This document shows positions 1,029-56,657 of a DNA stretch of 64,000 nucleotides, one piece after another; positions within the stretch are counted from its first letter, which is position 1, and every line of letters starts with the position of its first letter. Source of the stretch: Candidatus Babeliales bacterium (GTDB lineage Bacteria; Babelota; Babeliae; Babelales; JANWKD01); NCBI GenBank assembly GCA_963701665.1, contig OY969622.1, forward strand, positions 800,001-864,000, written 5' to 3'. A model generated the notes under the pieces. It saw only the letters and a list, made by a program, of their open reading frames with translations, did not search any database and was not told the origin of the DNA. Both the position numbers and the translations under genes were made by a program.

Positions 1029-1586
1029 TTATTTTATGCCTAAATAATATTTAATCGTGTCCCATAAAGAATATTGCATCATTGCATCTTGTTTTACTTC
1101 TTCTTTTGCTGGCAATAATTCCCATTCTTCTAGGCCTTTTTCAGTTTCATCGAGTGGGCTCTCAATGCACGCAACCTCTTTGTGTATAGTGCATAGATTG
1201 TCATACGCGGGCATCATGGCGCCATGATGCAATAAAAGATCAATGATATTAGATCCCTTGTTATGTTTTTTAGCGAATTCTAATGGACTCATCGAACTGA
1301 CATCAACGAGATTTGGATTCGCACCATGCTTTAATAACTCACGTATAACCATGGCCTCATGACCATTAGACTTATACAACGCTATCATCAAGGCTGTTTT
1401 ACCCTCATATGTTGCATTTGGATTCGCTCCTTCTTCAAGAAGCTTTTTTAAGGTAATGATATCGTTTCGCACAACTGCATCAAAAAGATCATAAGAAAGC
1501 GTTTCATCAAAGGTTTGATCAGAAACTGCACGCAATAAACATACGAAAAGACATAATATTGACGCATATTTTATCATAGGATTCAT
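1029..1586 (-). CDS. Secreted ankyrin-repeat protein
   Basis: N-terminal signal peptide; GANPN...GKTALMIA and GANPNLVD..MSPLEFA ankyrin repeats; paralog of 1610-2179. Confidence 0.88.
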   Translation of the reverse strand: MNPMIKYASILCLFVCLLRAVSDQTFDETLSYDLFDAVVRNDIITLKKLLEEGANPNATYEGKTALMIALYKSNGHEAMVIRELLKHGANPNLVDVSSMSPLEFAKKHNKGSNIIDLLLHHGAMMPAYDNLCTIHKEVACIESPLDETEKGLEEWELLPAKEEVKQDAMMQYSLWDTIKYYLGIK

Positions 1587-1609
1587 AGTTGATAATAGCT
1601 TTCGTTTAT

Positions 1610-2179
1610 TTAATACCCTAAATAATACTTAACAACATCCCATAGCGAACGTTGCTTTGATGCTTCTTCTTCCGCTATTTCTTCTTTCGTTGGTAAGAAT
1701 TCCCATTCTTTTAGCTCTTGCTCGGCTTGCTCATAAGGACATTCTTGAGGTGCAACTGCGCCGGGGGTATAACCAGCACTCGCGCGTGGCGTAATTTGAG
1801 CGCCATATTGCAACAAAAGATTAATAACTTTAGGATCTTTTTGATATTGAGTCGCATATTCTAATGGACTCATCAAGCTTGCATCAACAAGATTAGGATT
1901 AGCACCGTTTTTGAGTAATTCATCAACAATAACAACCTCATTGCCATTTGATGTATGGAGGGCCACCATCAATGGTGTTTTACCTTCATATTTTGCATTA
2001 AGATTAGCTCCTTGATTAATGAGCTTTTTCAACGTAACGCTATCATTTCGTTCGACGGCATTTAAAAGATCATATGAAAGCAGGTCATGAGTAACTTGTC
2101 GCGAAAAAGGGCGTTCTACTGCATGTAAAGCAACCATAAAAACGCTTAATACTAATACATATTTCATATTAAACTTCAT
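1610..2179 (-). CDS. Secreted ankyrin-repeat protein
   Basis: Signal peptide; GANLNAKYEGKTPLMVA and GANPNLVD ankyrin repeats; C-terminal SLWD..KYYLG shared with its neighbour. Confidence 0.88.
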   Translation of the reverse strand: MKFNMKYVLVLSVFMVALHAVERPFSRQVTHDLLSYDLLNAVERNDSVTLKKLINQGANLNAKYEGKTPLMVALHTSNGNEVVIVDELLKNGANPNLVDASLMSPLEYATQYQKDPKVINLLLQYGAQITPRASAGYTPGAVAPQECPYEQAEQELKEWEFLPTKEEIAEEEASKQRSLWDVVKYYLGY

Positions 2180-2723
2180 ATTTACCTCCTACTTCAATAA
2201 GTGTCCAATCTTCTTCTTCAGGATTGATCTCAATAAATTCCTTTTGCAATCTTGCTAATTCGCGTTCTTTTCTCTCTTTTTCTCGTTGCACACGATTTGT
2301 TGCAAGATAATCATCCATAGTTTTGCCATAGGCGTCTTTCACCTCGGAATCAGCACCTGCGGAAAGTAATAAATTCATAGGATCTGTATAGCCAAAATCA
2401 GCAGCAAAGGTTAATGCCGTCATGCCATTGCCGGCGATAAAATCTAATCCATTATTTTTTCGGGCCGTTTCCAATAAATATTCTAAAATACTCGCATCAA
2501 CGCGATCAGTAAAATTTTCAATTTGATGCATAATTGCAGTTTTTCCATCCCTTTGAGCATTAGGATTAGCCCCTAAAAGTAATAATGTTTCTACCATAGT
2601 AGGTCGATTAGAACCTCTTTGAAGAATTACATCAATTAATTGCTGATCCCGTTCAGAATTTGCATACATGGCTCCTGTTAAAAAAGCCAGTATTATCACT
2701 ACTATCTTTTTCATTACCCTCAC
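2169..2723 (-). CDS. Secreted ankyrin-repeat protein
   Basis: MKKIVVIILAFL signal peptide; GANPNAQRDGKTAIM and GMTALTFAA..LLSAGAD ankyrin repeats; charged C-terminal helix. Confidence 0.85.
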   Translation of the reverse strand: MRVMKKIVVIILAFLTGAMYANSERDQQLIDVILQRGSNRPTMVETLLLLGANPNAQRDGKTAIMHQIENFTDRVDASILEYLLETARKNNGLDFIAGNGMTALTFAADFGYTDPMNLLLSAGADSEVKDAYGKTMDDYLATNRVQREKERKERELARLQKEFIEINPEEEDWTLIEVGGKYEV

Positions 2724-7465: not shown

Positions 7466-7729
7466 ATGGTCGCAAAAAGAAAAAAAGCTGCATCAAAGAA
7501 AAAAAGAACAACAAAAAGAGCTACCAAACGTCGTGTAACAAAAAAACGTGCTGGCGCTAAGAGAAAAACAGCAAAAAGAGCTGGTGCAAAACGACGTACA
7601 GCTAAAAGAGCTGGTTCAAAACGCCGCGCATCAAAAAAACGCGCTGGTTCAAAAAGAAAAGTAGCTAAAAAAGCTAAAAGAAGACACAGCCATTTAAAAG
7701 TTGCGCTTAAAAACTTAATGGGTGCGTAA
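7466..7729 (+). CDS. Histone H1-like Lys/Arg/Ala-rich nucleoid protein
   Basis: 87 aa of KKRAGAKRKTAKRAG-type repeats; AAGGAG RBS. Confidence 0.8.
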   Translation: MVAKRKKAASKKKRTTKRATKRRVTKKRAGAKRKTAKRAGAKRRTAKRAGSKRRASKKRAGSKRKVAKKAKRRHSHLKVALKNLMGA

Positions 7730-14177: not shown

Positions 14178-16820
14178 TTAAGACAACTTAAAATCCTGAC
14201 GAGGTTCAATCCCAAGAAGGGCGTAAATTTCACTGGCAAATAATGTTTCTTTTTCATATAAAACGTTAGCCAACTTCTCGAGCTTATCACGATTGTTTTT
14301 CAAGAGTTGAATAACCTTTTGGTAAGAGCTTTCAAGCAACTTTTGTACCTCAGCATCGATACGTTCAGCTGTTTTTTGGGAGTATTGGTATTCACCCTGG
14401 TTTTGGGTATATACCACTGGCCCCATTTCCTCTGACATACCATAATGGCATACCATTTTACGCGCTATTTCAGTAGCTTTTTCAAAATCATTAGAAGCCC
14501 CGGTAGCAAGCACATTAAAGACTAATTCTTCAGCCGCTCGCCCGCCTAAGCATACCATGATTACCGCAAGCATTTCCTCCCTCGTTTGAGTATATTTGTC
14601 TTTCTCCGGTAGCGAGTGCGTTACTCCTAACGCTCGACCACGCGGAATAATAGTAACTTTATGGAGTGGGTCACTATGTTCTGGCATCAGTAATCTAACG
14701 AGCGCATGTCCTGATTCATGAAATGCGGTAATTTTTCGTTCTTCTGGGGAAAGTATAATAGTCTTAAGTGCTTTACCCAGCATCATTTTATCACTCGCTT
14801 CTTCAAAATCATGAACGGTAACAAATTCTTGTTGCGGATCTTTTGAAGCATTTAAAGCAGCTTCATTGACTAAATTAGCTAGATCAGCGCCCGAAAATCC
14901 TGGTGTTCCGCGAGCAATTTTGCTCAAGTCAACGGCAACATCTAATTTTACATTTTTAGCATGGAGCTTTAATATTTTTTCTCGACAGGTAATATCGGGA
15001 TAAGGAACTTCTACACGTCTATCAAATCTGCCCGGTCGTAAAAGTGCTTTATCGAGTGTTTCTGGTCTGTTTGTTGCAGCCATAACAATCACCGATGTTC
15101 CTTCAGTATCAAAGCCATCCATTTCTGTTAATAACTGATTGAGGGTTTGGTTACGTTCTTCATGGCCACCAATACCAGTCACCCGTTTAGCACCAACTGC
15201 ATCAATTTCATCAATGAATATGATACTTGGATTGTGCTTGCGCGCCTGGTTAAATAAATCACGCACGCGTGAAGCGCCAACACCAACATACATTTCAACA
15301 AATTCCGAAGCACTCACCGAAAAGAAAGGGCAATTTGCTTCGCCAGCAACTGCCTTTGCGAGCAATGTTTTACCATTACCCGGCTCACCGACAAGCAAAA
15401 TACCACGGGTGATTTTAGCACCAAGGCGCTTATAGCGTTCGGGATTCTTCAAAAAGTCGACGACATCTTTTAATTCTTCTTTTGCTTCTTCAACACCAGC
15501 TACATCAGCAAAGGTACATTTGACTTGAGATGGCATAAATAATTTTGCTTTTGCATTGCCTTTTGCTGCAGTACTAAGATTTGATGATTGATTTCTTTGC
15601 GATTCAAGCATAACTTTATGCGCTTCTTCAAGATCCTGCTGATCAACACATTCTTTATTTTTTTTAGAAGCATTAATTGCTGCTTTATTCATAAGATTTG
15701 CAAGATCAGCACCGCTAAAGCCTGCAGTTTCTTCAGCAACTTTTTTTAAGTTAACATCCGCACTCATCTTCAATGCTTGAGCGTTTATTGCTAAAATTTG
15801 TTCTCGGCTTGGCGTATCAGGAAATGAAACTTCAACACGGCGATCAAATCTTCCTGGTCGTAAAAGCGCTTTATCTAAAACATCAGGCATATTTGTTGCG
15901 GCAATAACAATGACTGAAGATCCAGCCGTATCAAAACCATCCATTTCAGTAAGTAATTGGTTGAGCGTTTGCTCACGTTCATCGTGACCCCCGCCAAAAC
16001 CACTCCCTCGTTGACGACCAATAGCATCTATTTCATCAATGAAAACAATACTTGGCGCGTGTTTACGAGCTTGTGCAAAAAGATCACGCACGCGTGCAGC
16101 ACCAACGCCAACAAAAACCTCGATAAAATCTGAACCAGTAATACTGAAAAACGGGCAATTTGCTTCGCCAGCGACTGCTTTTGCAAGTAAGGTTTTACCA
16201 TTCCCTGGCTCACCTATCAATAAAACACCGCGGGTAACTTTAGCCCCTAATCGCTTGTATTTTTCGGGATTTTTCAAGAAATCTACAACATCTTTAAGCT
16301 CTTCTTTTGCGTCGTGGGCACCTGCCACCGATTTAAAGGTAACTTTTATCGTAGAAGGCATAAACATTTTTGCTTTACTTTTGCCCATACTAAAGATATT
16401 ACTGCCGCCGCCTGAACCACGACTTTGTTTGAAGAAATACCAAAAACCAAGTGGCATAAGAAGGAAAGAAGCAATCAACAGTAAATGCCAGAAACTAAAC
16501 TGTGATGATAACGGCGCGACTGAGAATTGAACATTATGGTCACGCAAGAGATCAAGATTCTTTGGATTATCAGCAACGACGGTTTCAAAATGGGTATCAT
16601 CTTTCATGATGCCATACACATCTTGACCATTGATATGTACTGATTTTACTTCATTATTTTCAATTGCATCCAAATACTTTGAATAAGAAATATTTTTTAC
16701 TTGTCGCGTGTAATCAGTTAATTTAGTGAGTAACGCGATAGATATTACAAAGAAAAGGACTACAAAGACTAAGTGTTTAGGCCCGCGTGCAAAAGGATTA
16801 TTTTTTAATTTGTGTCTCAT
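14178..16820 (-). CDS. ftsH: ATP-dependent zinc metalloprotease FtsH with two tandem AAA+ modules
   Basis: Two TM helices, two complete AAA modules ([22 protein letters not shown] each twice), M41 HESGH and GASND; start probably MRHK at 16820. Confidence 0.93.
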
Positions 16821-16997
16821 AATACACCCATTCTTACTTAAATTTTCACATAAAATTGGAGCATAAGCCATTTCGTGACAGAATCATGAAATGGATCTGA
16901 TAATATATTCTAATTGTACTATAAAATATAAAAAATTGAAAGTTCTGAGTAATTATATTATAAAAGATGCGTACTGTCGATCTTTTCTGAAGAAAAA

Positions 16998-22564: not shown

Positions 22565-23872
22565 TTATGATACTGCGCACCATGTTGATGATTTTTCAGG
22601 AACAAGATAAGGCTGCAAAATAGCTGCTAATATGGGCTTATTCTGCATAAGATTCTTAACAGCTTCTTTAACAAGCGAAGGTGCTTTATTGAGTTGAACT
22701 TTTTCATCAATAGTTATCATCTCGAGCAACCATCGCAAGGTTAACGCATCTTCGATTGATAATTTTTGTATATCTGGTTGTAAATCTGGATTTGTTATAT
22801 GCCATTTTTCAACGATTCTTTGATAGGCCATAGTCTTATCACAGATCAACTGATTTTGACTGTCGTACCCTACTGCCTTCTGGGTAGTATACTTTTTAAT
22901 ATTTTCAAGTGAAGCAGCATCCCATATTTGTATTAACCATTTTTTTGTATCTAGTAATGATGATGTTACTAAGTTTGCACCATTTGGTGAGAATGAAACA
23001 GAATGTGCTGGCCCTTGTGAAGTAGCCAGCAATTGACACTTTTGTGTCGCTAAATTCCAAAGGCGTACAATTTTGTCTTCCGTTGCGACTGCTAATATCT
23101 TGTTAGAAGGGGAAAAACGTAATGCAGTAACACATTTTCTGCTTGCGAATTCCGCAATCATACTATCTTCTTGTATACTCCATACAACCACTTTAGAACA
23201 ATTATTCATAGCAAGCGCTATAAGTGATTTATCATCTGAGAAAACGAAGTGTGATGGCGAATTATTTTTTATTTCATCAATAAGTAATTTAGGTAATGTA
23301 TGACTAGCATTAAAACCGTATTTTTTTGCCATTGTTGAAGCAACAAACAAAGACATTTCTGCTGGCATCGTGTCTGAGGGTGGCGCAGTAAATGTTTGCG
23401 TAATTTTAAGCATTTTTTCAAGATGCGTAGTATTAAATTCTTTTATGAGAACATTACTCAACAAATCTGAAGCTATGTTCATAAGAGTACAACAGTCTAA
23501 ATAGTTAGCTGTATTTAATAAAGGTATCAGTGCGTTTAACGATAGTTTTTTTGCTGCGAGGAAAGCTTTGCATTTTTTAAGTATTTCTTCTTTAGATAAA
23601 GTTTTTGATTGTTGAACTAAAAAGTCACTTAATTCTTTAATAATAGACATCTCGCGTGAAGTAACAACATCTGATACTACCAAAGGATTTTGAGTTGTGT
23701 CATCACAGTCTGCGATCATATGAGTAAGTAGTTTTGATTCTTGTATGGTTTCATCGGTAAAGGTAAATTTTCCACCGTCTCGCGTTTCCACCACTATTTC
23801 CATAGCAGAAAGTGAGAATGCGGTATTTATGAGAAACAACATTAAATTTTTTATTACTTTTTTACTAAGCAT
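22565..23872 (-). CDS. Secreted Skp1/BTB-like + WD40 protein with C-terminal CaaX
   Basis: Signal peptide; Skp1-like IVVETRDGGKF...ESKLLTHMIAD...LLNTANYLD; WD40 repeats (VTALRFSP..LAVATEDKIVRLWN, SVSFSPNG..IQIWD); ends CAVS. Confidence 0.8.
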   Translation of the reverse strand: MLSKKVIKNLMLFLINTAFSLSAMEIVVETRDGGKFTFTDETIQESKLLTHMIADCDDTTQNPLVVSDVVTSREMSIIKELSDFLVQQSKTLSKEEILKKCKAFLAAKKLSLNALIPLLNTANYLDCCTLMNIASDLLSNVLIKEFNTTHLEKMLKITQTFTAPPSDTMPAEMSLFVASTMAKKYGFNASHTLPKLLIDEIKNNSPSHFVFSDDKSLIALAMNNCSKVVVWSIQEDSMIAEFASRKCVTALRFSPSNKILAVATEDKIVRLWNLATQKCQLLATSQGPAHSVSFSPNGANLVTSSLLDTKKWLIQIWDAASLENIKKYTTQKAVGYDSQNQLICDKTMAYQRIVEKWHITNPDLQPDIQKLSIEDALTLRWLLEMITIDEKVQLNKAPSLVKEAVKNLMQNKPILAAILQPYLVPEKSSTWCAVS

Positions 23873-24469: not shown

Positions 24470-27400
24470 ATGAAGCGATCCCCCGTTTTCTACATTATTA
24501 TATTGGGCGCTCTATTTTGCACTTCAGCGATTTCGGCTTCCACAGATATAATGCACCATCCAGATTTCAGTACTGATATTATAGTTGATAAAGACTGTAA
24601 ACAGTTTATCCAAGATATTATCAAAGAAGCACTCATTGATAATACGTATGAACAGCTTTCCGAGGGATTATTACATTGTTACGAAAGAATTCAATGCGAT
24701 CCTGAATGTTGCACATTACCCCTTAATGATCTTATAGATGCCTTCCCTGAATTAGTTGCAAAATTAAAAGAGAAGCTTAAAGCTCCCCGCCCTCCTCAGG
24801 GCAATCATGCTATTGTTGGCAGCAATACCATTGATTTTGGATCTCTTATAGCATTACTAATACGATTAGAATTTCTGATCAATCAACTAGCGCAACAACA
24901 AAGCTCTTGCTGTAGCCAGATACTCTCTGACTTTCAGCAAACATGGTCTATCCTTGATCATCTCTCATTTACTACTACGGTGGATCTTTCTTCCGTGTTT
25001 ACGGCGCTCAATGCATGCTGCTCAAATATAACCTCGGAATTCCAACAAACATGGACCATCCTTGATCATCTCTCACTTACTATTACGGCGGATCTTTCTT
25101 CTGTGTTTACGGCGCTCAATGCATGCTGCTCAAACATAAATTCTGAATTCCAACAAACATGGACTATTTTAGCCGGTCTTTCACTAACTGCTACCGTTGA
25201 TCTTTCTTCTGTGTTTACGGGGCTCAACGCATGCTGCTCAAACATAAATTCTGAATTCCAGCAAACATGGACTATGTTAGCCGCCGGGTTTAATGGTACC
25301 TTCAGTACACTTAATAGTTTTAATACCACTGTTACCACAGATTTTTCATCAACCTGGACAATTATCAATACCGGATTCAATGGAACTTTCTCTGCGCTCA
25401 ATGCATGCTGCTCAAACATAAATTCTGAATTCCAACAAACATGGACTATTTTAGCTGCTGATTTCAATGGCACATTCTCTGCAATTAATGCGATCAACAC
25501 TAATGCAAATAACACGTTCACCGTAATCGCAGATCTAAAAACTACGGTGACCAATGACTTTGCTGCAACATGGACAATTATTAATGCTGGATTCAATGGA
25601 ACCTTCTCTGCGCTCAATGCTTGTTGCACGAATATAAATTCTGAGTTTCAACAAACTTGGACGATCTTAGCTGCTGATTTCAATGGCACATTCTCCGCAA
25701 TCAATGCGATCAACACTAATGCAAATAACACGTTCACCGTAATCGCAGATCTAACAACTACGGTGACCAATGACTTTGCCGCAACATGGACAATTATTAA
25801 TGCCGGATTCAACGGCACCTTCTCTGCACTCAATGCTTGCTGCACGAATATAAATTCCGAATTTCAACAAACATGGACAATTTTAGCCGCTGATTTCAAT
25901 GGCACATTCTCCGCAATCAATGCGATCAACACTAATGCAAATAACACATTCACCGTAATAGCAGATCTAACAACTACGGTGACCAATGACTTTGCTGCAA
26001 CATGGACAATTATTAATGCTGGATTCAATGGAACCTTCTCTGCACTTAATGCTTGCTGCAACAATATAAATTCCGAATTTCAACAAACATGGACTATCTT
26101 AGCTGCTGATTTCAATGGCACATTCTCTGCAATTAATGCGATCAACACTAATGCAAATAACACGTTCACCGTAATCGCAGATCTAAAAAACACTGTTACC
26201 AATGACTTTGCTGCAACATGGACAATTATTAATGCCGGATTTAATGGAACCTTTTCAGCGCTCAATGCTTGTTGCACGAATATAAATTCTGAGTTTCAAC
26301 AAACATGGACTATCTTAGCTGCTGATTTCAATGGCACATTCTCCGCAATCAATGCAATAAGCATAGATGCAAATGGCACCTTCTCTGCACTGGCAGATTT
26401 AAAAAATACAATCACCAATGACTTTGCTGCAACGTGGACAATTCTTAATGCTGGATTCAATGGAACTTTCTCTGCGCTCAATGCTTGCTGCACAACTATA
26501 AATTCTGAGTTTCAACAAACCTGGACTATCTTAGCTGCTGATTTCAATGGCACATTCTCCGCAATTAATGCGATCAACACCAATGCAAATAACACATTCA
26601 CCGTAATCGCAGATCTAACAACTACGGTGACCAATGACTTTGCTGCAACGTGGACAATTATTAATGCTGGATTCAACGGCACCTTCTCTGCACTCGATGC
26701 TTGTTGCAACAACATAAATTCTGAGTTTCAACAAACGTGGACTATCTTAGCTGCTGATTTCAATGGCACATTCTCTGCAATTAATGCGATCAACACTAAT
26801 GCAAATAACACGTTCACCGTAATCGCAGATCTAACAACTACGGTGACCAATGACTTTGCTGCAACGTGGACAATTATTAATGCTGGATTCAATGGCACGT
26901 TCTCTGCACTCAATGCCTGTTGCACAACTATAAATTCCGAATTTCAACAAACATGGACTATCTTAGCTGCTGATTTCAATGGCACATTCTCTGCAATTAA
27001 TGCGATCAACACTAATGCAAATAATACGTTCACCGTAATCGCAGATCTAAAAACTACGGTGACCAATGACTTTGCTGCAACATGGACAATTATTAATGCT
27101 GGATTTAATGGAACCTTCTCTGCACTCAATGCTTGTTGCAACAACATAAATTCTGAGTTTCAACAAACATGGACCATCTTAGCTGCTGATTTCAATGGCA
27201 CATTCAGTATGCTTTCAAATCTTTCTACTGCAGTGACCAATGACTTTGCTGCGACCTGGACCATTTTAGCTGCTGGCTTTAATGGAACCTTCAGCGCAAT
27301 TAATGCCATCACGCTTGATGCAAATGGCACCTTTAGCGCACTATTAGATTTGAAAAATACTATCACTAATGATTTTGCTGCAACGTGGACAATTTTAAAC

Positions 27401-29158
27401 GCTGAGTTCAATGGAACGTTCTCTGCACTCAATGCTTGTTGCACTAACATCAATTCTGAATTCCAACAAACATGGACTATCTTAGCTGCCGGATTTAATG
27501 GCACATTCAGCACACTCGCTACTATTCCTGGCGATTTTAACGCTACATGGACTATTTTGGCCTCTGGCTTTAATGGAACTTTCACAGCGCTCAATGCTTG
27601 TTGCACTAACATCAATTCCGAATTCCAACAAACTTGGACTATCTTAGGTGCTGGTTTCAATGGGACTTTCAGCACACTCGCTACTATTCTTGGCGATTTT
27701 AACGCTACGTGGACTATTTTAGCCTCTGGCTTTAACGGCACCTTCTCGGCACTCAACGCCTGTTGCACTAACATTACTTCTGAGTTCCAACAAACTTGGA
27801 CTATTTTAAATGTCTTAACCGAAAACCTTTCAAATCCGGTTATGATTACGCAAGCAAATTTTGGAACAGCAGGTGGAACGCCCTATATCATTTCAACGTC
27901 TGGCGTATATAGGTTGGGTAGCAATGTTGTTTTCACACCATCTATAACAACTACTGCTATACTTATTACGACAACCAACGTTGTCCTTGATCTACAACTC
28001 TTCACATTAAGCCAAGGAAATACCACCACGGGCGTGAATGCTATCGTCGTTAGTTCTGGTATGACCGATGTGTATATTCAAAATGGCACAATAAAAAACT
28101 TCACACGTTCTGCAATATCATTCCAAGGGAACAATCGAAGAGTAGGAATTGATCAAACCACCACCGTATCATGTGCGGTGCGCGGCATCGAGTTAATCTC
28201 ATCGAGCGCACCGAGCCAAAATGTTATCATTCAAAATTGCAATGTATACAATTGCTCAACAGCAGCAACCGCCGATAATGCATTAATTTTACAATCATGT
28301 AATAAAGGAATAATAAAGGATTGCACATTGAATGGTAATGGTGTTAATTCAAATACCATAAATGTACTTAATTTTAATAGCTGCATTGAATTTATTGTGT
28401 CAGATATCAGTATGTATGAAAATACTGCCTCTTCGCTCAACTGCATATCATTAGATAGCACGTCTTCACTTAATTACTTTGATAACTGTATCATGATGAA
28501 TAATCAATCCATTAATACTCTCAATGGGTTTACTATTTCTAGCAACGCCAATATTTTTAACAATTGCATCGTCAATGGAAATATAAGTTATTCGACAAAT
28601 ACCAGTCCTCTAAACGGATTCAATATAGCGGGATCTTTCAATACAATGACTAACTGCGCAGTATCCTTTAATCAAACACCAGTGCCGACAAGTTCGACGA
28701 CAGTTGCCCCTATTAATGCTTTTGACTTAAGCGGATCTGAAAACATCCTATCTAATTGTCAATCAATATTCAACCAGGCCAACAGTCGTTTTGAGGGATG
28801 TTTTATCTCTACTACGAGCAATATCATCGATCACTTTATAGCCGCTAATAATATAGGTTTCTTAGGTGTCTGTGCTGGCATTTTCATTAACAGCGCCTCA
28901 GCTGTTAACAATATAGTAAGGAATTGTTTATTCGTAAATAATCTTGGTTATACTACTGTGAGTGGACAACCCACCAATGGTTTCGGACTAGATAATGCGG
29001 CTACGGGATATTTAATCTATGACAATGTTGCGTATATAAATCAAACTACACAAATTTTTGGTGTCGCTGCAGGATCTTTAACAACGCCAACAGCACCAGC
29101 ATCACAAAACTTGGCAGCTGTTACAGGTGCCTGGACTAATTTAGCACTCGCTGCTTAA
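24470..29158 (+). CDS. Giant secreted repeat protein 1 (Cys-Cys coiled-coil-like stalk + beta-helix-like head)
   Basis: Signal peptide; 216-nt/72-aa repeats (NACC..INSEFQQTWTIL..FNGTF); Asn/Cys-rich beta-helix-like C-terminal domain; AAGGA RBS. Confidence 0.9.
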   Translation: MKRSPVFYIIILGALFCTSAISASTDIMHHPDFSTDIIVDKDCKQFIQDIIKEALIDNTYEQLSEGLLHCYERIQCDPECCTLPLNDLIDAFPELVAKLKEKLKAPRPPQGNHAIVGSNTIDFGSLIALLIRLEFLINQLAQQQSSCCSQILSDFQQTWSILDHLSFTTTVDLSSVFTALNACCSNITSEFQQTWTILDHLSLTITADLSSVFTALNACCSNINSEFQQTWTILAGLSLTATVDLSSVFTGLNACCSNINSEFQQTWTMLAAGFNGTFSTLNSFNTTVTTDFSSTWTIINTGFNGTFSALNACCSNINSEFQQTWTILAADFNGTFSAINAINTNANNTFTVIADLKTTVTNDFAATWTIINAGFNGTFSALNACCTNINSEFQQTWTILAADFNGTFSAINAINTNANNTFTVIADLTTTVTNDFAATWTIINAGFNGTFSALNACCTNINSEFQQTWTILAADFNGTFSAINAINTNANNTFTVIADLTTTVTNDFAATWTIINAGFNGTFSALNACCNNINSEFQQTWTILAADFNGTFSAINAINTNANNTFTVIADLKNTVTNDFAATWTIINAGFNGTFSALNACCTNINSEFQQTWTILAADFNGTFSAINAISIDANGTFSALADLKNTITNDFAATWTILNAGFNGTFSALNACCTTINSEFQQTWTILAADFNGTFSAINAINTNANNTFTVIADLTTTVTNDFAATWTIINAGFNGTFSALDACCNNINSEFQQTWTILAADFNGTFSAINAINTNANNTFTVIADLTTTVTNDFAATWTIINAGFNGTFSALNACCTTINSEFQQTWTILAADFNGTFSAINAINTNANNTFTVIADLKTTVTNDFAATWTIINAGFNGTFSALNACCNNINSEFQQTWTILAADFNGTFSMLSNLSTAVTNDFAATWTILAAGFNGTFSAINAITLDANGTFSALLDLKNTITNDFAATWTILNAEFNGTFSALNACCTNINSEFQQTWTILAAGFNGTFSTLATIPGDFNATWTILASGFNGTFTALNACCTNINSEFQQTWTILGAGFNGTFSTLATILGDFNATWTILASGFNGTFSALNACCTNITSEFQQTWTILNVLTENLSNPVMITQANFGTAGGTPYIISTSGVYRLGSNVVFTPSITTTAILITTTNVVLDLQLFTLSQGNTTTGVNAIVVSSGMTDVYIQNGTIKNFTRSAISFQGNNRRVGIDQTTTVSCAVRGIELISSSAPSQNVIIQNCNVYNCSTAATADNALILQSCNKGIIKDCTLNGNGVNSNTINVLNFNSCIEFIVSDISMYENTASSLNCISLDSTSSLNYFDNCIMMNNQSINTLNGFTISSNANIFNNCIVNGNISYSTNTSPLNGFNIAGSFNTMTNCAVSFNQTPVPTSSTTVAPINAFDLSGSENILSNCQSIFNQANSRFEGCFISTTSNIIDHFIAANNIGFLGVCAGIFINSASAVNNIVRNCLFVNNLGYTTVSGQPTNGFGLDNAATGYLIYDNVAYINQTTQIFGVAAGSLTTPTAPASQNLAAVTGAWTNLALAA
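25430..27810 (+). repeat. Intragenic 216-bp tandem repeat (about 8 full units plus shorter variants); equivalent arrays in the three paralogs
   Basis: The period is visible directly and in antisense shadow ORF boundaries 25648, 25864, 26080, 26296, 26512, 26728, 26944, 27160. Confidence 0.95.
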
Positions 29159-29215
29159 AAGGAGATAAACACCATGGAACGTATTTCTCTTTTTAACATG
29201 TAGAAAAGGAACTTA

Positions 29216-32200
29216 ATGAAGCAATCCCTCGTTTTCTATACTATTATAATGGGTGCTCTATTTTGCACTTCAGCAATGCCAATTTCGATGGATATGCTGT
29301 ATCAGCAAGACTTTACTCCTGATATTATTATTGACAGCGAATGTAAAAAATTCATTCAAACTATTATTGAAGAAGCGCTCATTGAAAATACGCAGGAACA
29401 ACTTTCTGAGGGATTATTAAAATGTTACGCAACAATTCAACGAGACCCTGAATGTTGCACGTTACCGCTTAATGATCTCATAGACGCTTTCCCTGAATTA
29501 GTAGCAAAATTAGAAGATAAACTTAAAGCCCCTCGTCCACAACAAGGCGGTCATGCTATTGTTGGCGGCAACACCATTGATTTTGGACCCATTATAGCCT
29601 TATTACTACGGCTAGAATTTCTCATCAATCAAATAAACCAAAGCTCTTGTTGTAACCAGATACTTTCTGACTTTCAGCAAACATGGACAATCCTTAATCA
29701 TCTTTCATTTACAACTTCCGTTGATCTTTCTCCTGTATTTACCGCACTCAACGCATGCTGCTCAAACATAACCTCGGAATTCCAGCAAACATGGACTATT
29801 CTTGCTAATCTCTCAGTTACTGCTACCGTGGATCTTTCTCCCGTGTTTACGGCGCTTAATGCATGCTGCTCAAACATAACCTCGGAATTCCAACAAACAT
29901 GGACTATACTAGCCAATCTCTCGATTACTGCCACAGTGGATCTTTCTTCTGTGTTTACAGTACTCAATGCGTGCTGCTCAAATATAAATTCTGAATTTCA
30001 ACAAACATGGACTATCTTAGCCTCCGGATTTAATGGAACTTTTAGCATACTTTCAAATCTTACTACTAGTACTGCCGATTTTGCTGCAACATGGACAATT
30101 TTAAATGCCGGATTCAATGGAACTTTCTCTGCGCTCAACGCATGCTGCTCAAACATAAATTCTGAATTCCAACAAACATGGTCAATTTTAGCTGCTGATT
30201 TTAATGGAACTTTTAGCACTATCGCAAACATTAATGTCGAAACAAATGGTACTTTTACTGCAATTGCTGATTTAAAAAACACTATCACCACAGACTTTGC
30301 TGCAACGTGGACAATTTTAAACGCTGGTTTCAATGGAACCTTCTCCGCTCTCAATGCTTGTTGCACAACTATAAATTCTGAATTTCAACAAACATGGTCA
30401 ATTTTAGCTGCTGATTTCAATGGAACTTTCTCCGCAATCAATGCAATAAACACAGACGCAAATGGCACCTTTAGCGCAATTGCTGATTTAACAACTACTA
30501 TCACCAATGATTTTGCTGCAACGTGGACTATGCTTAACGCTGGTTTTAATGGCACCTTCTCTGCTCTCAGCGCATGTTGCACAACTATAAATTCAGAATT
30601 CCAACGAACATGGACTATTTTAGCCGCCGGCTTTAATGGAACTTTCTCTGCAATCAATGCAATTAATATTGATGCAAATGGCACCTTCACTGCCTTAGCA
30701 GATTTAACAACTACTATCACCAATGACTTTGCTGCAACGTGGACTATGCTTAACGCTGGTTTTAATGGCACCTTCAGCGCACTTAACGCATGCTGCACGA
30801 ATATAAACTCTGAGTTTCAACAAACATGGACTATTTTAGCTGCTGATTTCAATGGCACATTCTCTGCAATTAATGCCATCACTTTTGATGCAAATGGTAC
30901 CTTCTCTGCGATTGCTGATTTGAAAAACACTATCACCAATGATTTTGTTGGTACGTGGACTATTCTTAACGCTGGATTCAATGGAACCTTTTCTGCACTC
31001 AATGCTTGCTGTACAACTATAAATTCTGAATTCCAACAAACGTGGACTATCCTAGCTGCTGATTTCAATGGCACATTCTCTGCAATTAATGCCATCACTA
31101 TTGATGCAAATGGCACCTTCTCTGCAATTGCTGATTTGAAAAACACTATCACTAATGACTTTACTGCAACATGGACAATTCTTAATGCTGGATTCAATGG
31201 GACTTTCTCTGCGCTCAACGCCTGTTGCACAACTATAAATTCTGAATTTCAACAAACTTGGACTATCCTAGCCGCCGGGTTTAATGGTACATTCTCTGCA
31301 ATTAATGCCATCACTATTGATGCAAATGGCACTCTTACTGCGTTAGCAGATTTAAAAAATACTATCACTAATGATTTTGCTGCAACATGGACAATTCTTA
31401 ATGCTGGATTCAATGGAACCTTCTCTGCACTCAATGCTTGCTGTACAACTATAAATTCTGAATTCCAACAAACGTGGACTATCCTAGCTGCTGATTTCAA
31501 TGGCACCTTCAGCGCTATCGCAAACATTATTCCCGAAGCAAACGGTACTTTCACTGCATTAGCAGATTTAAAAAATACTATCACCAACGACTTTGCTGCA
31601 ACGTGGACAATTCTTAATGCCGGCTTTAATGGAACTTTCAGCGCACTCAATGCCTGCTGCACAACTATAAATTCTGAATTTCAACAAACATGGACAATTT
31701 TAGGCGCTGGTTTCAATGGAACTTTCAGCGCTATCGCAAACATTAATGCCGAAGCGAATGGTACTTTTACTGCGTTAGCAGATTTAACAACTACTATAAC
31801 CAATGACTTTGCCGCAACGTGGACAATTCTTAATGCTGGATTCAATGGAACTTTCTCTGCGCTCAATGCTTGTTGCACAACTATAAACTCCGAATTTCAA
31901 CAAACATGGACTATCTTAGCTGCTGGTTTTAATGGAACTTTTAGTATACTTTCAAATCTTACTACTACGGTGACCAATGATTTTGCTGCAACGTGGACTA
32001 TTTTAGCTGCTGGATTCAATGGAACTTTCAGCGTTATCGCAAACATTAATGCTCAAGCAAATGCTACTTTTACTGCCTTAGCAGATTTAAAAATTACTAT
32101 CACCAATGATTTTGCTGCAACATGGACAATTTTGGCTGCCGGTTTCAATGGAACTTTCTCTGCACTCAATGCCTGCTGCACGAATATAAATTCCGAATTC

Positions 32201-33865
32201 CAACAAACATGGACGATCTTAGCCGCCGGATTTAATGGCACCTTCAGCTCACTCCCTGCTTTTATGAGCGATTTTAACGCAACATGGACTATTTTAAATG
32301 CTGGTTTCAATGGCACATTCTCTGCTCTCAATGCTTGTTGCACGAATATAAATTCTGAATTCCAGCAAACATGGACTATCCTAGGTGCCGGCTTCAATGG
32401 AACTTTCAGCACATTCGCCACTATTATTTCAGATTTTAATGATACATGGTCTACTCTAGCAGCAGGCTTTAACGGAACAGCCTCGGCACTCAACGCCTGT
32501 TGTACCAACATTACTTCCGAATTTCAACAAACATGGACAATTTTAAATGTCTCAACTGAAAACCTTTCAAATCCAGTTATGATTACACAAGCAAATTTTG
32601 GAGCAACAGGTGGAACACAATACGTCATTTCAACATCTGGTGTCTATAGGTTGGGTAGTAACATTGTCTTTACACCAGCTACAGCAATACCCGCTATTCT
32701 TATTACAACAACCAATGTCGTTCTTGATTTACAACTCTTCACCTTAAGCCAGGGAAATAGTACCACGGGTGTGAATGCTATCCAAGTTAGTTCTGGTATG
32801 GCCAGTGTGTATATTCAAAATGGCATGATAGAAAATTTCACGCGAGCGGCAATATCATTCCAAGGAAATAATCAAGGAGTGGGAATTGATAATACCACCA
32901 CCCTATCATGTGCCGTGCGCGGTATCGAGTTCATTGCATCAGGAACTAGCCAAAACATTACCATTCAAAATTGCAAAGTATACAATTGCTCAACATCAGC
33001 GAGCGCTGATAATGCAATGATCTTACAAGCATGTAAAAAGGGAATAATAAAGAATTGTGCCTTGAACGGAAATGGCGTTGCTTCAAAAAACATAACGGCA
33101 CTTAATTTTAACGGCTGCATTGAATTTAATGTATCTGACATCAGTATGTATGAAAATCTTGGTTCAAGCTTCAATGGCGTACAATTAGATAGCACGTCAT
33201 CACTCAATAATTTTACTAATTGCATCATCATAAATAATCAAAGTTCAGGATCGTCCGGAACATGCGCAGGAATTAACCTTAACGGAAGCTCCTCTAATAC
33301 TTTTAATTCTTGTATCATTAATAATAATAACGCTAGCAACAGCGGAGCATTCAATGGCATTTGGCTTCAAGGTTCTGCCCCAAATAATAATACGTTTAAC
33401 TCATGTAAAGTATCTTTTAACACAGCGGCGTTGCTCTGTACTGCAATTTATGGCAACGCTGGTTCTTCTAATTCCTTTAACTTCTGCCAAACAAATGCAA
33501 ATACATCAACTTCTTCCTACGGATCAGGAATTACTATTAATTCCAACTCTAACACGCTTAACAATTGCATAGTACTCTCTAATAAAGGACCAGCCGTTCA
33601 AGGCTTTGGTATCACTACGACAGGAAATGATTGTGTGGTTAAGGATTGTCTGAGTGCATTTAACCTAGGATCCAGTGGCGGCAATGGCTTTGGGTTTAAT
33701 AATACCAGCAATGCAATTCTCTATTATAGGAATGTTGCTTATGATAATCCGGGTACGCAAGCTTTTGGTATAGCAGCTGGATCTTTAACGACGCCAACAG
33801 CACCAGCATCACAACACTTGGCAACCGTCACATCACCTTGGACTAATTTAGCACTCGCTGCTTAA
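29216..33865 (+). CDS. Giant secreted repeat protein 2
   Basis: Paralog of 24470-29158 with the same architecture; head is divergent. Confidence 0.9.
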   Translation: MKQSLVFYTIIMGALFCTSAMPISMDMLYQQDFTPDIIIDSECKKFIQTIIEEALIENTQEQLSEGLLKCYATIQRDPECCTLPLNDLIDAFPELVAKLEDKLKAPRPQQGGHAIVGGNTIDFGPIIALLLRLEFLINQINQSSCCNQILSDFQQTWTILNHLSFTTSVDLSPVFTALNACCSNITSEFQQTWTILANLSVTATVDLSPVFTALNACCSNITSEFQQTWTILANLSITATVDLSSVFTVLNACCSNINSEFQQTWTILASGFNGTFSILSNLTTSTADFAATWTILNAGFNGTFSALNACCSNINSEFQQTWSILAADFNGTFSTIANINVETNGTFTAIADLKNTITTDFAATWTILNAGFNGTFSALNACCTTINSEFQQTWSILAADFNGTFSAINAINTDANGTFSAIADLTTTITNDFAATWTMLNAGFNGTFSALSACCTTINSEFQRTWTILAAGFNGTFSAINAINIDANGTFTALADLTTTITNDFAATWTMLNAGFNGTFSALNACCTNINSEFQQTWTILAADFNGTFSAINAITFDANGTFSAIADLKNTITNDFVGTWTILNAGFNGTFSALNACCTTINSEFQQTWTILAADFNGTFSAINAITIDANGTFSAIADLKNTITNDFTATWTILNAGFNGTFSALNACCTTINSEFQQTWTILAAGFNGTFSAINAITIDANGTLTALADLKNTITNDFAATWTILNAGFNGTFSALNACCTTINSEFQQTWTILAADFNGTFSAIANIIPEANGTFTALADLKNTITNDFAATWTILNAGFNGTFSALNACCTTINSEFQQTWTILGAGFNGTFSAIANINAEANGTFTALADLTTTITNDFAATWTILNAGFNGTFSALNACCTTINSEFQQTWTILAAGFNGTFSILSNLTTTVTNDFAATWTILAAGFNGTFSVIANINAQANATFTALADLKITITNDFAATWTILAAGFNGTFSALNACCTNINSEFQQTWTILAAGFNGTFSSLPAFMSDFNATWTILNAGFNGTFSALNACCTNINSEFQQTWTILGAGFNGTFSTFATIISDFNDTWSTLAAGFNGTASALNACCTNITSEFQQTWTILNVSTENLSNPVMITQANFGATGGTQYVISTSGVYRLGSNIVFTPATAIPAILITTTNVVLDLQLFTLSQGNSTTGVNAIQVSSGMASVYIQNGMIENFTRAAISFQGNNQGVGIDNTTTLSCAVRGIEFIASGTSQNITIQNCKVYNCSTSASADNAMILQACKKGIIKNCALNGNGVASKNITALNFNGCIEFNVSDISMYENLGSSFNGVQLDSTSSLNNFTNCIIINNQSSGSSGTCAGINLNGSSSNTFNSCIINNNNASNSGAFNGIWLQGSAPNNNTFNSCKVSFNTAALLCTAIYGNAGSSNSFNFCQTNANTSTSSYGSGITINSNSNTLNNCIVLSNKGPAVQGFGITTTGNDCVVKDCLSAFNLGSSGGNGFGFNNTSNAILYYRNVAYDNPGTQAFGIAAGSLTTPTAPASQHLATVTSPWTNLALAA

Positions 33866-33922
33866 AAGGAGATAAACACCATGGAACGTATTCCTCTTTT
33901 TAACATATAGAAAAGGAACTTA

Positions 33923-36900
33923 ATGAAGCAATCCCTCGTTTTCTATACTATTGTATTGAGCATTCTGTTTTGCACTTCAGCAATCTCAGGTTCAATAGAT
34001 ATGCTACATCAGCCACGCTTTACTCCTGATATTGTCATCGACACAGCATGTAAAAAGTTTATTCAAGATATAATTGAAGAAGCGCTCACTGAAAATATGT
34101 ATGAACAACTTTCTGAGGGATTATTAACATGTTACGCAACGATTCAATGCGAACCCGAATGTTGCACATTGCCGCTTAATGATCTCATAGACGCTTTCCC
34201 AGAATTAGTAGCGAAATTAGAAGATAAGCTTAAAGCACCTCGCCCACAAGGCGGTCATGCTATTGTTGGCAGCAGTACCATAGATTTTGAATCTATTATA
34301 GCCTTCTTATTACGCTTAGAATTTCTCATCAATCAAATAAGTCAACAACAAACATTTTGCTGTAACCAAATACTCGCTGATTTTCAACAAACATGGACAA
34401 TTCTTGCCAATCTCTCAATTACTACTACAGTAGATCTTTCTCCTGTGTTTACCACACTCGATGCATGTTGTTCTAATATAACCTCGGAATTCCAGCAAAC
34501 ATGGACAATTCTTGCCAATCTTTCAATTACTGCTACGGCGGATCTTGCTCCTGTGTTTACCTCACTCGATGCATGTTGCTCTAACATAACCTCGGAGTTC
34601 CAGCAAACATGGACCATACTAGCCAATCTCTCAGTTACTGCCACGGCTGATCTTTCTTCCGTATTCACTGCACTTAATGCGTGCTGCTCAAACATAAATT
34701 CTGAATTTCAACAAACATGGACTATCTTAGCTGCTGGGTTTAATGGTACCTTCTCTGCTATCAATAGTTTCAATACCACTATTACTGCAGATTTTTCATC
34801 AACGTGGACTATTTTAAATGCTGGATTTAATGGAACCTTCAGCGCACTCAATACCTGCTGCACAAATATAAACTCGGAATTCCAACAAACATGGACTATC
34901 TTAGCTGCTGGTTTTAATGGTACATTCTCTGCGATTAATGCCATCACTATCGATACAAATGGTACTTTAACCGCAATTGTTGATTTAACAACTACTATCA
35001 CTAATGACTTTGCTGCAACATGGACTATTTTAAATGCCGGATTTAATGGAACTTTCTCTACGCTCAATACCTGCTGCACGAATATAAACTCGGAATTCCA
35101 ACAAACATGGACTATCTTAGCTGCTGGTTTTAATGGTACATTCTCTGCAATTAATGCCATCACTATCGATACAAATGGTACTTTAACCGCAATTGCTGAT
35201 TTAACAACTACTATCACTAATGACTTTGCTGCAACGTGGACAATTTTAAATGCCGGATTCAATGGAACCTTCAGCGTACTCAATGCTTGTTGCGCGAATA
35301 TAAATTCTGAGTTTCAACAGACGTGGACTATTTTAGCTGCTGATTTTAATGGTACATTCTCTGCAATTAATGCCATCACTATCGATACAAATAGTACTTT
35401 AACCGCAATTGCTGATTTAACAACTACTATCACTAATGACTTTGCTGCAACGTGGACAATTTTAAACGCTGGTTTCAATGGCACATTTTCTGCTCTCAAT
35501 GCTTGTTGCACAACTATAAACTCTGAATTCCAACAAACGTGGACTATCTTAGCTGCTGATTTTAATGGTACATTCTCTGCAATTAATGCCATCACTATCG
35601 ATACAAATGGTACTTTAACCGCAATTGCTGATTTAACAACTGCTATCACCAATGACTTTGCTGCAACGTGGACAATTCTTAATGCTGGATTCAATGGCAC
35701 TTTCTCCGCTCTCAATGCTTGCTGCACAACTATAAACTCTGAGTTTCAACAGACGTGGACTATGTTAGCCGCTGATTTCAATGGCACATTCTCTGTAATT
35801 AATGCGATCACTATTGATGCAAATGGTACTTTAACCGCAATTGCAGATTTAACAACTACTATCACTAATGATTTTGCTGCAACATGGACAATTATTAATG
35901 CTGGATTTAATGGAACTTTCAGCGTACTCAATGACTGTTGCACAACTATAAATTCCGAATTTCAACAAACATGGACCATTTTAGCTGCTGATTTCAATGG
36001 CACATTCTCTGCAATTAATGCAATTAATGAGTCGAATGGCACTTTTACTGCGTTAGCAGATTTAAAAACTACCATCACGAATGACTTTGCTGCAACATGG
36101 ACGATTCTTAATGCTGGATTCAATGGCACTTTCTCTGCTCTCAATGCTTGTTGCACGAATATAAATTCTGAATTTCAACAAACGTGGACCATTTTAGCCG
36201 CTGATTTCAATGGCACATTCTCTGTAATTAATGCGATCACTATTGATGCAAATGGTACTTTAACCGCAATTGCAGATTTAACAACTACTATCACTAATGA
36301 TTTTGCTGCAACGTGGACAATTCTTAATGCTGGATTCAATGGCACATTCTCCGCGCTCAATGCTTGCTGCACCAATATAAATTCAGAATTTCAACAAACA
36401 TGGACAATTCTTAATGCTGGATTCAATGGCACATTCTCCGCAATCAATGCAATAAATACGAATGCAAATAGCACTTTCACCGCCTTAGCAGATTTAAAAA
36501 CTACTATCACCAATGATTTTGCTGCAACATGGACTCTGTTAAATACTGGATTCAATGGCACTTTTTCCGCTCTCAATGCTTGTTGCACGAATATCAATTC
36601 CGAATTCCAACAAACGTGGACTATTTTAGCTACCGGGTTCAATGGCACCTTCAGTACACTCTCAAATCTTACTACTACGGTGACCAATGACTTTGCAGCA
36701 ACGTGGACCATTTTAGCTGCTGGTTTTAATGGAACTTTCAGCACTATCGCAAACATTAATGAAGCAAATGCTACTTTTACTGCATTAGCAGATTTAACAA
36801 CTACTATCACTAATGATTTTGCTGCAACATGGACTATTTTAGCCACTGGTTTCAATGGAACGTTCTCTGCGCTCAATGCTTGTTGCACAAATATAAATTC

Positions 36901-38587: not shown

Positions 38588-38600
38588 AAAGGAGATAAAT

Positions 38601-55133: not shown

Positions 55134-56537
55134 CTATGCTGAAACTGGCTCTAAACCAATGACCTCATTTTTAGCTATCGCTCTGTTATAACGATTACCA
55201 AGCAATAGTGCCGTCAATAACCAGCATCCAAAAATGAGAGCAAAGAAGACCGAATGCAGCGGTAAAAAGAGCGCCGGTCCAGCAGCTTCGGCAAAAACGA
55301 CAAATGTGGATCCTACACCCTTACCAAACCGTGAACCAAATGAATCGATCCATGACTTAGATTTAAATTTAATGTCTTTAACTGTTGGGATGTATAAGCT
55401 TTCTCGTACTGGCTGCGCAAACGCATAATTAATTGCCTGCAATAAAATAATGCTCACAATCACGGCAAATGGGGTATAGCTGAAAATAAAATAGGCAAGT
55501 ACACACCCCGTAATAATAGGGATTAGCATCAGACAAACTTTTTCGCCAAATAAATTTAATAAGGTGCGAGTGCCTAAAAATGAAATCAAAATACCAAAAA
55601 AGTGTTGTATGAATGCAACTTTAAAGAGAAACGCACTCACGCCAGAAATATCAGCAGAGTTTTCTTGAGCAACGCCCAAACGCTGATAGCTTAAAACGGT
55701 ACTTAAAATTTCGTAAAAAAAGAGCATCCCAAATATCCCTAAAATATACGGGTACCTCATAAGTAGGGTAAGGCCAGAGAATAAACTAATTTTTTCCTCA
55801 CCAGTTTTTTCTTTTGCTTTTTCAATTTTGTACACAGCTTCATAACCATGCAAGTTTTTTCGAGGAACCTTTGTCATCAAAAGGTACACTAAAAACGGAA
55901 CAAAAAGGCTTAAAAGTGAGAAAAGCCCTAACATGAATTGATGACTCTGAACATCATTGAGGCAATAAGTACCAAACGTACCGTGACAGGTAAAAAGTGC
56001 CCACGCTATCCCTGCCGTAAACATACCGCCAAACTTGGAACCAGACACCAGCAAAGCATAATTATGTTTTGCCGCTTCGGGGCTATAGACTGAATTTGCA
56101 AATGCCCAAAAGACACTAATAACAAAGGGAGAAAAGACTTCAATAAAAAAGTAAAATAACCAACCAAAAATTCTAAAAGGACTTGTCTCAGTATTTGCAA
56201 GACCAATCGTTGGATGACCTACTAAATACATACTGAGAAGTCCCATCAAGCCGTACGCTATGCTATAAATATATAAGAGCTGATGGCGACGCACCTTATC
56301 AACTAAAAATGAGTAAAACAAAACGCCAGGCACTAAAATTAACATAGCCGTCATTCTTGCCCACGGAATATATTCTTTTCCCACAGTGCTCATAAAAATA
56401 GAACTTTTAAGTTCACGCACTAACGTGTATGAGCCAATTACAAGAAAAAAAGACATTCCCAATAACAAAAGCTTTAATCGTTCTTCTCGCTCTATAGTAA
56501 AGAAAGATTTAAAAAATAATGTGAGCTTCGAACTCAT
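55134..56537 (-). CDS. NTT/TLC family nucleotide (ATP/ADP) translocase
   Basis: Multi-TM; LVRELKSS, FWAFAN, RESLYIPT..DIKFKSKSWID..GSRFGK. Confidence 0.88.
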   Translation of the reverse strand: MSSKLTLFFKSFFTIEREERLKLLLLGMSFFLVIGSYTLVRELKSSIFMSTVGKEYIPWARMTAMLILVPGVLFYSFLVDKVRRHQLLYIYSIAYGLMGLLSMYLVGHPTIGLANTETSPFRIFGWLFYFFIEVFSPFVISVFWAFANSVYSPEAAKHNYALLVSGSKFGGMFTAGIAWALFTCHGTFGTYCLNDVQSHQFMLGLFSLLSLFVPFLVYLLMTKVPRKNLHGYEAVYKIEKAKEKTGEEKISLFSGLTLLMRYPYILGIFGMLFFYEILSTVLSYQRLGVAQENSADISGVSAFLFKVAFIQHFFGILISFLGTRTLLNLFGEKVCLMLIPIITGCVLAYFIFSYTPFAVIVSIILLQAINYAFAQPVRESLYIPTVKDIKFKSKSWIDSFGSRFGKGVGSTFVVFAEAAGPALFLPLHSVFFALIFGCWLLTALLLGNRYNRAIAKNEVIGLEPVSA

Positions 56538-56589
56538 TGAGTCCCCCAGTATGTTATGATGAAATACGTGCCACGTTCTGACTTTTTAC

Positions 56590-56632
56590 TTAAAAAGCCT
56601 TCTTAACGATAGTTCATTAAGAAGGCTTTTTA
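56590..56632. terminator. Rho-independent terminator between the two NTT genes
   Basis: TAAAAAGCCTTCTTAA...TTAAGAAGGCTTTTTA hairpin. Confidence 0.75.
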
Positions 56633-56657
56633 ATTTCATATACTCACAATCATCTGA

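Follow-up and report, generated by a model that had tools for sequence, protein, structure and literature searches.

The stretch of DNA analysed here (the window, 64,000 nucleotides) comprises bases 800001-864000 of the 1.34 Mb single-contig genome, G000, of a member of the Babeliales (Babelota/Dependentiae/TM6), a phylum of which every cultured member is described as infecting protists (PMC12172432). Close to one end of the window, three minus-strand genes lie head-to-tail, with a thioredoxin-reductase-like gene (19-954) on one side and the rnpA/phoH region on the other (Table 1). All three encoded proteins match Pfam ankyrin families above the cut-off, and ankyrin is the sole type of Pfam family found in them. 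Genes 1 and 2 share 51% amino acid identity and about 73% nucleotide identity, and gene 1 is 28% identical to gene 3. The end of the gene 3 reading frame extends over the start of gene 2 and its ribosome-binding site. Gene 3 itself most likely begins at ATG 2714 rather than at GTG 2723, because a purine-rich element lies upstream and the orthologues begin with MKK or MKR.

Table 1. Positions, in the window, of the three ankyrin genes and of the features of their products
Feature	Window position	Strand	Description
Gene 1 (P0001)	1029..1586	-	185 aa; N-terminus resembling a signal peptide, followed by about 3 ankyrin repeats and a tail that holds site 1 and the terminal SLW helix; subfamily B
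Gene 1 ankyrin module	1218..1487	-	Ank_2, residues 34-123
Gene 1 site 1	1101..1130	-	EE-WELL-PAKE; W155 = 0, E at +1, L at +3, E at +7
Gene 1 terminal segment	1041..1070	-	SLWDTIKYYL; helix-like; contains a non-acidic W-x-x-I core
Gene 2 (P0002)	1610..2179	-	189 aa; paralogue of gene 1 with the same layout; subfamily B
Gene 2 ankyrin module	1787..2068	-	Ank_2, residues 38-131
Gene 2 site 1	1682..1711	-	KE-WEFL-PTKE; W159
Gene 2 terminal segment	1619..1648	-	SLWDVVKYYL; modelled helix 179-187, pLDDT ~60
Gene 3 (P0003)	2169..2714	-	181 aa counted from ATG 2714; N-terminus resembling a signal peptide, then the ankyrin module, a long charged helix (141-159) and a predicted disordered tail with two motifs; subfamily A
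Gene 3 ankyrin module	2334..2609	-	Ank_2, residues 36-127
Gene 3 site 1	2226..2243	-	KE-FIEI; F160, directly after modelled helix
Gene 3 site 2	2196..2219	-	EEED-WTLI; W170; strongest LIR candidate; modelled coil, pLDDT ~42-55

Immediately downstream of gene 1 lies a short palindromic repeat (980-1024) that has 29 blastn hits in the genome; in G001, a genome of the same genus, a transposase-like ORF occupies this place. Further into the window, the minus strand encodes an FtsH of 897 aa (14178-16871) with two tandem AAA modules ahead of the M41 peptidase. On the plus strand, four giant proteins of about 1550 aa are encoded in tandem (24470-43346), with Cys-Cys/TWTIL repeats and differing C-terminal domains, for which Pfam yields scattered short hits only; giant TWTIL-repeat-like proteins are also found near the trio in G001 and in G003, a genome of the same family. 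Two TLC ATP/ADP translocases lie at 55134-58004. A Lon-like protease, its family named by inspection, appears as two ORFs (58383-59762 and 59811-60812, plus strand), which may reflect a frameshift or an assembly error. The plus strand at 7466-7729 encodes an 87-residue protein rich in Lys, Arg and Ala, which we take to resemble histone-like nucleoid proteins.

The first-pass annotation had described the three ankyrin proteins as secreted, and secretion is likely in that their N-termini are signal-peptide-like, as judged by a hydrophobicity heuristic of our own and by inspection. No lipobox was seen in the 15 N-termini inspected. The genome as a whole yields 41 ankyrin hits, 37 of them in signal-peptide classes. 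Secreted ankyrin proteins are very numerous in the Babelota, and their functions are described as unknown (PMC6561590): Babela massiliensis has 126 ankyrin-repeat proteins, 79 of which carry a signal peptide (PMC4378268), and Chromulinavorax destructans has 98 (PMC6561590). These proteins resemble the trio in combining ankyrin repeats with a signal peptide, putative in the trio, and the available text of the two sources assigns them no target or motif.

The annotation had furthermore read the C-terminal tails as carrying acidic motifs of the LIR/AIM type, by which the proteins would bind ATG8. The strings that it quoted (LEEWELL, LKEWEFL, KEFIEI and EEEDWTLI, as well as the terminal SLWDTIKYYLG and SLWDVVKYYLG) are all present in the minus-strand ORFs. 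LEEWELL and LKEWEFL align with KEFIEI of gene 3, at the position here called site 1, and not with EEEDWTLI, which constitutes site 2. LIR/AIM motifs are described as an aromatic-x-x-aliphatic core with upstream acids, disordered when free (PMC5025708). The core is present in all four quoted motifs. The SLW segment in the products of genes 1 and 2 lacks upstream acids, and site 1 is the sole acidic site of these two proteins. As genes 1 and 2 are close paralogues, the three motif-bearing proteins do not represent independent occurrences.

A more detailed pattern is provided by a proteome-wide screen with LC3B, which reports a preference for W at position 0, acids at -1 to -3 and E at both +1 and +7, and by a consensus peptide containing DDEEWEILD, which is reported to bind LC3B at ~60 nM (bioRxiv 10.64898/2026.01.05.697675). 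Tails were scored over their last 60 residues for six LC3B features (W at 0, acids at -1, -2 and -3, E at +1 and an acid at +7), which describe human LC3B and not a protist ATG8. Gene 1 scores 5 and genes 2 and 3 score 4. At least four of the six features are found in 22 of 24 members of the family described below, compared with 1 of 448 other signal-peptide proteins and 0 of 423 cytoplasmic ones in this genome. The acidic flanks and the E at +7 are partly a matter of composition, however, because 24-46% of the residues in the family's tails are D or E.

The acid at +7 also recalls the ligands that obey the 'LIR core + C-helix' rule, which is described as requiring an acid at +7 and a hydrophobic residue at +8 or +11 (PMC8727931). 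In giant ankyrin-G/B, FYCO1, FAM134B, SEC62 and Ede1, too, an acid at +7 and then a likely helix come after the core (PMC8727931). At site 1, the +7 acid is found in 10 of 11 subfamily B and 10 of 13 subfamily A proteins. Nevertheless, the trio is not placed in this subclass: a hydrophobic residue at +8 or +11 occurs in only 4 of the 11 subfamily B proteins, neither gene 1 nor gene 2 among them. These ligands are host proteins with their anchor at +8/+11, whereas the window proteins have theirs at +9 (V/I) and subfamily B has an invariant proline at +4.

Taken singly, the motif in any one of these sequences is not beyond chance. When the last 60 residues were shuffled, acidic W-x-x-[LIV] appeared in 21%, 12% and 11% of shuffles for genes 1, 2 and 3, respectively, and two motifs, as in the tail of gene 3, appeared in 1.1%. 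For the genome-wide comparison, 472 of 1237 proteins were placed in a signal-peptide class, defined with our own gene calls and the hydrophobicity heuristic as having a signal-peptide-like start without a further membrane helix. Enrichment of the motif among secreted proteins, which the annotation had offered as a test of its own reading, is absent: across the genome the core motif occurs at 1.02 times the shuffled frequency in the 472 signal-peptide proteins and at 0.95 times in 534 cytoplasmic proteins. Doubly acidic W motifs number 10 in the signal-peptide class, against 5.1 +/- 2.0 expected, and 5 in the cytoplasmic class, against 4.4 +/- 1.9. There are 319 xLIR hits where shuffling gives 216, yet the proteins with hits number 160 against 156, and the probable source of the excess of hits is the set of giant proteins at 24470-43346 with their TWTIL repeats.

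The relatives of the three proteins give a different picture. The family as collected comprises 25 members, of which 14 belong to subfamily A (gene 3 type) and 11 to subfamily B (genes 1/2 type). P0011, a duplicate of P0005, was removed before counting, and P0020-P0059 and P0066-P0175, which their E-values, lengths and coverage marked as generic ankyrin proteins, were set aside and served as controls. Because the tail was part of the profiles with which the relatives were gathered, look-alike tails are favoured and the following counts are biased upward; moreover, the members are kin, and the counts reflect selection on the motif rather than 25 independent events. Among 261 genomes of the phylum, with no more than 12 candidates scored in each, full-length profile matches were found only in G000, G001, where a trio lies at the same place, and G003, where three members lie at another place. 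In a profile search of 1.84 billion representatives, long ankyrin proteins dominated the result, and a single new member, P0254, stood among the 150 matches listed. A metagenome scan gave one generic locus out of 389 pattern matches, and a genome scan gave four loci, two of which are family members. A search of the ESM Atlas with the gene 3 tail reached a best score of 0.86, at the level of a lead only, in clusters without names. In a tree of 18 members, the median pairwise identity is 33%, 5 of 153 pairs exceed 60%, and subfamily B forms one supported clade.

In spite of this divergence, an acidic [W/F]-x-x-[L/I/V] tail motif is kept in 25 of 25 members, with exchanges between W and F. At site 1, which follows a long charged helix, the 18 members show an aromatic residue without exception, E at -1 in 17 and L/I/V at +3 in 17. 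Within subfamily A, this site has F in 13/13 and I/L at +3 in 12/13, while all 11 subfamily B proteins have E-[W/F]-x-x-[L/I/V]-P there (W in eight, F in three), with E at +7 in 10. Six of these 11 were found after the motif had been defined, and all six keep the site 1 core. In subfamily A, 4-11 residues separate site 2 from the C-terminus, and its spacing from site 1 is 10-46 residues; it has W in 13/13, I/V/L at +3 in 13/13, upstream acids in 13/13, T/E at +1 in 12/13 and E at -2 and -3 in 11/13; the late-found P0254, also of subfamily A, carries both sites. A core of the form [W/F/Y]-x-x-[L/I/V] is found at the site 2 position in 18/18 members, and P0007 and P0065 have a third copy of the motif.

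Acidic W-x-x-[LIV] lies within the last 40 residues of 18/18 members. In the control sets the figures are 14 of 448 for other signal-peptide proteins of the genome, 14 of 423 for its cytoplasmic proteins, 2 of 114 for further ankyrin ORFs and 2 of 150 for generic ankyrin hits. The two among the 114, L048 (G035) and L042 (G097), are ankyrin ORFs of other Babeliales families that end in EEWGEL and EEWNSL, and it is possible from their sequences that they carry independent LIR tails. Together, these comparisons bear on the suggestion that the motifs are chance resemblances in acidic tails, inherited among paralogues. Shuffle probabilities of 0.07-0.32 per sequence across the members, and the missing genome-wide excess, agree with that suggestion, but the aromatic and +3 positions are invariant in 25 of 25 relatives amid divergent tails of variable length, and we consider it very improbable. 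As judged by comparison of the sequences, the tail motif is conserved beyond chance across the relatives and is a real feature.

A conserved motif need not be read by ATG8, and the tail might instead be a true host-directed motif with another reader, such as the Atg11/FIP200 claw, SUMO or a protist adaptor. The Atg11/FIP200 claw has LIR-like specificity. In 5 of 18 members, gene 3 among them, site 2 is overlapped by a SIM-like pattern, which is thus not family-wide, and the +2 position is hydrophobic in 12 of 13 site 2 motifs of subfamily A. In addition, the invariant P at +4 in subfamily B does not appear among the LIR requirements described in the available text of the sources. SIMs, however, are not known to need an aromatic residue, whereas site 2 of subfamily A always has W and site 1 always has an aromatic residue. 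Patterns for other ligands, written from consensus sequences (kinesin W-acidic, AP-2 WxxF, clathrin box, W-box, FFAT and GAE), match 0 of 18 tails each, and the agreement with the LC3B preferences extends from -3 to +7. A reader other than ATG8 appears unlikely. A separate C-terminal feature was seen elsewhere in the genome, where two adjoining signal-peptide proteins (G000:C1:1135054-1137383, minus strand) have a common C-terminal WW-x-G-L-Y-V-A-V segment.

The conserved residues could also have a structural role, with site 1 as the hydrophobic face of a helix end and the tails packing on the ankyrin modules of their own or of a neighbouring protein, in a bacterial complex that is periplasmic or exposed at the surface and has no part in autophagy. 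Site 1 is compatible with such a role: L/I is found at -3 or -4 in 11 and 9 of 18 members, giving a -4/-3, 0, +3 hydrophobic periodicity that also fits a conserved helix face. In the model of gene 2, site 1 is drawn at a helix end that runs through W159, albeit with pLDDT below 50 over most of residues 133-177 and a shallow alignment of 5 rows. Members of both subfamilies cluster in three genomes, and P0014 with P0062, as well as P0017 with P0018 and P0064, are suggested to share contigs by the equal lengths of their longest contigs. Site 2 of subfamily A, on the other hand, is flanked by prolines and acids close to the C-terminus, and its place with respect to site 1 shifts by as much as 36 residues. 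For gene 3, the model is confident in the ankyrin fold and in helix 141-159, after which it shows coil over both motifs (residues 161-181, pLDDT 42-55; shallow alignment of 13 rows), and the third copies in P0007 and P0065 are as expected of modular motifs. With the CaaX signature of the host cytosol in the signal-peptide class (see below) also pointing away from it, a purely structural role seems improbable. The reading of the tails as LIR/AIM motifs is supported by their conservation, by the covariation of W/F at position 0 and L/I/V at +3, by the predicted disorder in gene 3 and by the fit to LC3B preferences, and it finds no backing in genome-wide enrichment.

The C-terminal end of genes 1 and 2 had been annotated as an amphipathic SLWD..KYYLG helix, possibly tethering the proteins to membranes. 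The segment is indeed present, and in gene 2 it is modelled as a helix at residues 179-187, but its amphipathicity is weak: ranked among the C-termini of this genome, the hydrophobic moment stands at the 54th percentile for gene 1 and at the 93rd for gene 2. Across the 11 subfamily B proteins, W175 and L182 (the near-invariance of which, like the modelled helix, would suit an anchor) are accompanied by W-x-x-[LIV] in 9; furthermore, the segment aligns with site 2 of subfamily A and reads DDEWEIL in P0065. Because of these last three features, the terminal segment may be a degenerate LIR as readily as a membrane tether. The moment exceeds the 85th percentile in 4 of the 11 proteins and falls to the 26th in P0060. 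The proposed tether, with a moment that is unremarkable in one of the two window proteins, has no specific support, and we regard as possible but doubtful the specific notion that the segment is a membrane anchor, which would be independent of ATG8 binding through site 1.

For the tails to meet ATG8, the proteins would have to reach the cytosol of the host. The genome encodes, above the cut-off, two secretins and two GspE/PilB ATPases. Among 464 signal-peptide proteins, Cys occupies position -4 in 18 where 6.5 are expected (binomial p = 1.4e-4; neighbouring positions, 3-10), and strict CaaX ends number 8 in signal-peptide proteins against 0 of 476 cytoplasmic ones. An example from the window is a Skp1/POZ-like and WD40 protein (22565-23872, minus strand) that ends in CAVS. 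The CaaX excess suggests host-prenylated effectors in Babelota. As prenylation is a eukaryotic cytosolic process, part of the signal-peptide class probably reaches the host cytosol. Type II is reported as the only secretion system of Babela massiliensis (PMC4378268), and two gspD copies were reported in all TM6 genomes then compared (PMC4776705). Chromulinavorax is described as replicating in the host cytoplasm (PMC6561590), while Babela massiliensis appears to grow inside a vacuole (PMC4378268), a setting in which secretion by type II would not necessarily deliver proteins to the cytosol.

We consider it probable that the trio represents exported, enzyme-free proteins whose tails bind host ATG8 and whose ankyrin modules bind a second partner, and with which the parasite would subvert or block host autophagy. 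From export onward, this mechanism goes beyond the observed genes, domains, motifs, conservation and clustering, and we infer its steps as follows. The signal-peptide-like N-termini, the secretins and the GspE/PilB ATPases point to Sec export followed by likely type II secretion, and the CaaX excess in the same protein class would indirectly place the proteins in the cytosol of a protist host. There, site 2 and site 1 are predicted to engage ATG8 through its two hydrophobic pockets, the prediction being strongest for EEED-WTLI, and the tandem sites of subfamily A would confer avidity. Neither Pfam, which reports ankyrin families only, nor the model of gene 3, which consists of ankyrin, helix and tail, reveals a catalytic or lipid-binding domain in the trio, and Foldseek returns generic ankyrin/DARPin hits. 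Since a catalytic domain is lacking, the effect would arise by bridging or by occupying ATG8. Bridging, in which the protein would act as a mimic of a selective-autophagy receptor and tie an ankyrin-bound client to the ATG8-coated membrane, is the version that we tentatively prefer, given that the surface of the ankyrin module is conserved and that its diversification has led to paralogues retained next to one another. Competition, in which ATG8 would be occupied and host receptors displaced, is the less probable version and seems fairly unlikely. No ATG8 was found above the cut-off in any of the 261 Babelota genomes. In a separate observation, 56 viral contigs (L061-L116), many of them labelled GVMAG, match the ATG8 pattern and hold ATG8-like ORFs, and the two that were scanned score far above the Pfam ATG8 cut-off.

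Two known effectors resemble the trio in part. PexRD54, an RXLR-WY effector of Phytophthora infestans, contacts ATG8 through the AIM D-W-E-I-V (residues 377-381), as described from a crystal structure (PMC5025708). It is a secreted, non-enzymatic repeat protein with an acidic W-x-x-aliphatic motif at a disordered C-terminus, a layout that is predicted for the trio too, and several relatives of the trio end almost as it does (P0008 in EEWEIIG, P0007 in EGWELVEE). The two differ in that PexRD54 is an oomycete protein with WY repeats, RXLR delivery, a single AIM and a plant host, whereas the trio family is bacterial, with ankyrin repeats, a putative Sec-type signal, two to three motifs and a presumed protist host. 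Membership of the RXLR-WY effectors is rejected, as the trio has ankyrin and not WY repeats, and the similarity is one of layout only. RavZ of Legionella pneumophila is likewise secreted by a bacterium that infects protists and is described as carrying several LIRs, two of them in tandem, but it is delivered by type IV secretion, has a PI3P-binding domain and, as an Ulp-like cysteine protease, severs ATG8 from its lipid (PMC8634866). The trio is not a deconjugase of the RavZ type, for neither an Ulp-like protease nor a PI3P-binding domain is apparent from Pfam or the model.

In the literature searched, made up largely of open-access main texts, no report on LIR motifs or autophagy in Babelota was found, and the string 'autophag' is absent from PMC4378268, PMC4776705, PMC6561590 and PMC12172432. 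If ATG8 binding by the tails is true, ATG8 mimicry would extend beyond RavZ and PexRD54 to a non-enzymatic bacterial adaptor exported by the Sec/type II route, substrates of this route would reach the host cytosol, and the 25 relatives would constitute natural tandem-LIR variants selected against protist ATG8. The family offers a sharp test of a named host target, in the form of a peptide and ATG8 with one residue changed. A still broader reading, which we hold to be somewhat unlikely, is that a Babelota lineage evolved selective-autophagy receptors of its own: co-secreted ankyrin adaptors with different clients, whose tandem high-affinity LIRs would route host cargo or membrane to ATG8-coated compartments, thereby feeding the parasite or building its niche. 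Were this receptor reading true, the trio would represent a bacterial, enzyme-free receptor mimic and would provide, within the literature searched, the first named host pathway for the hundreds of ankyrin proteins of the phylum.
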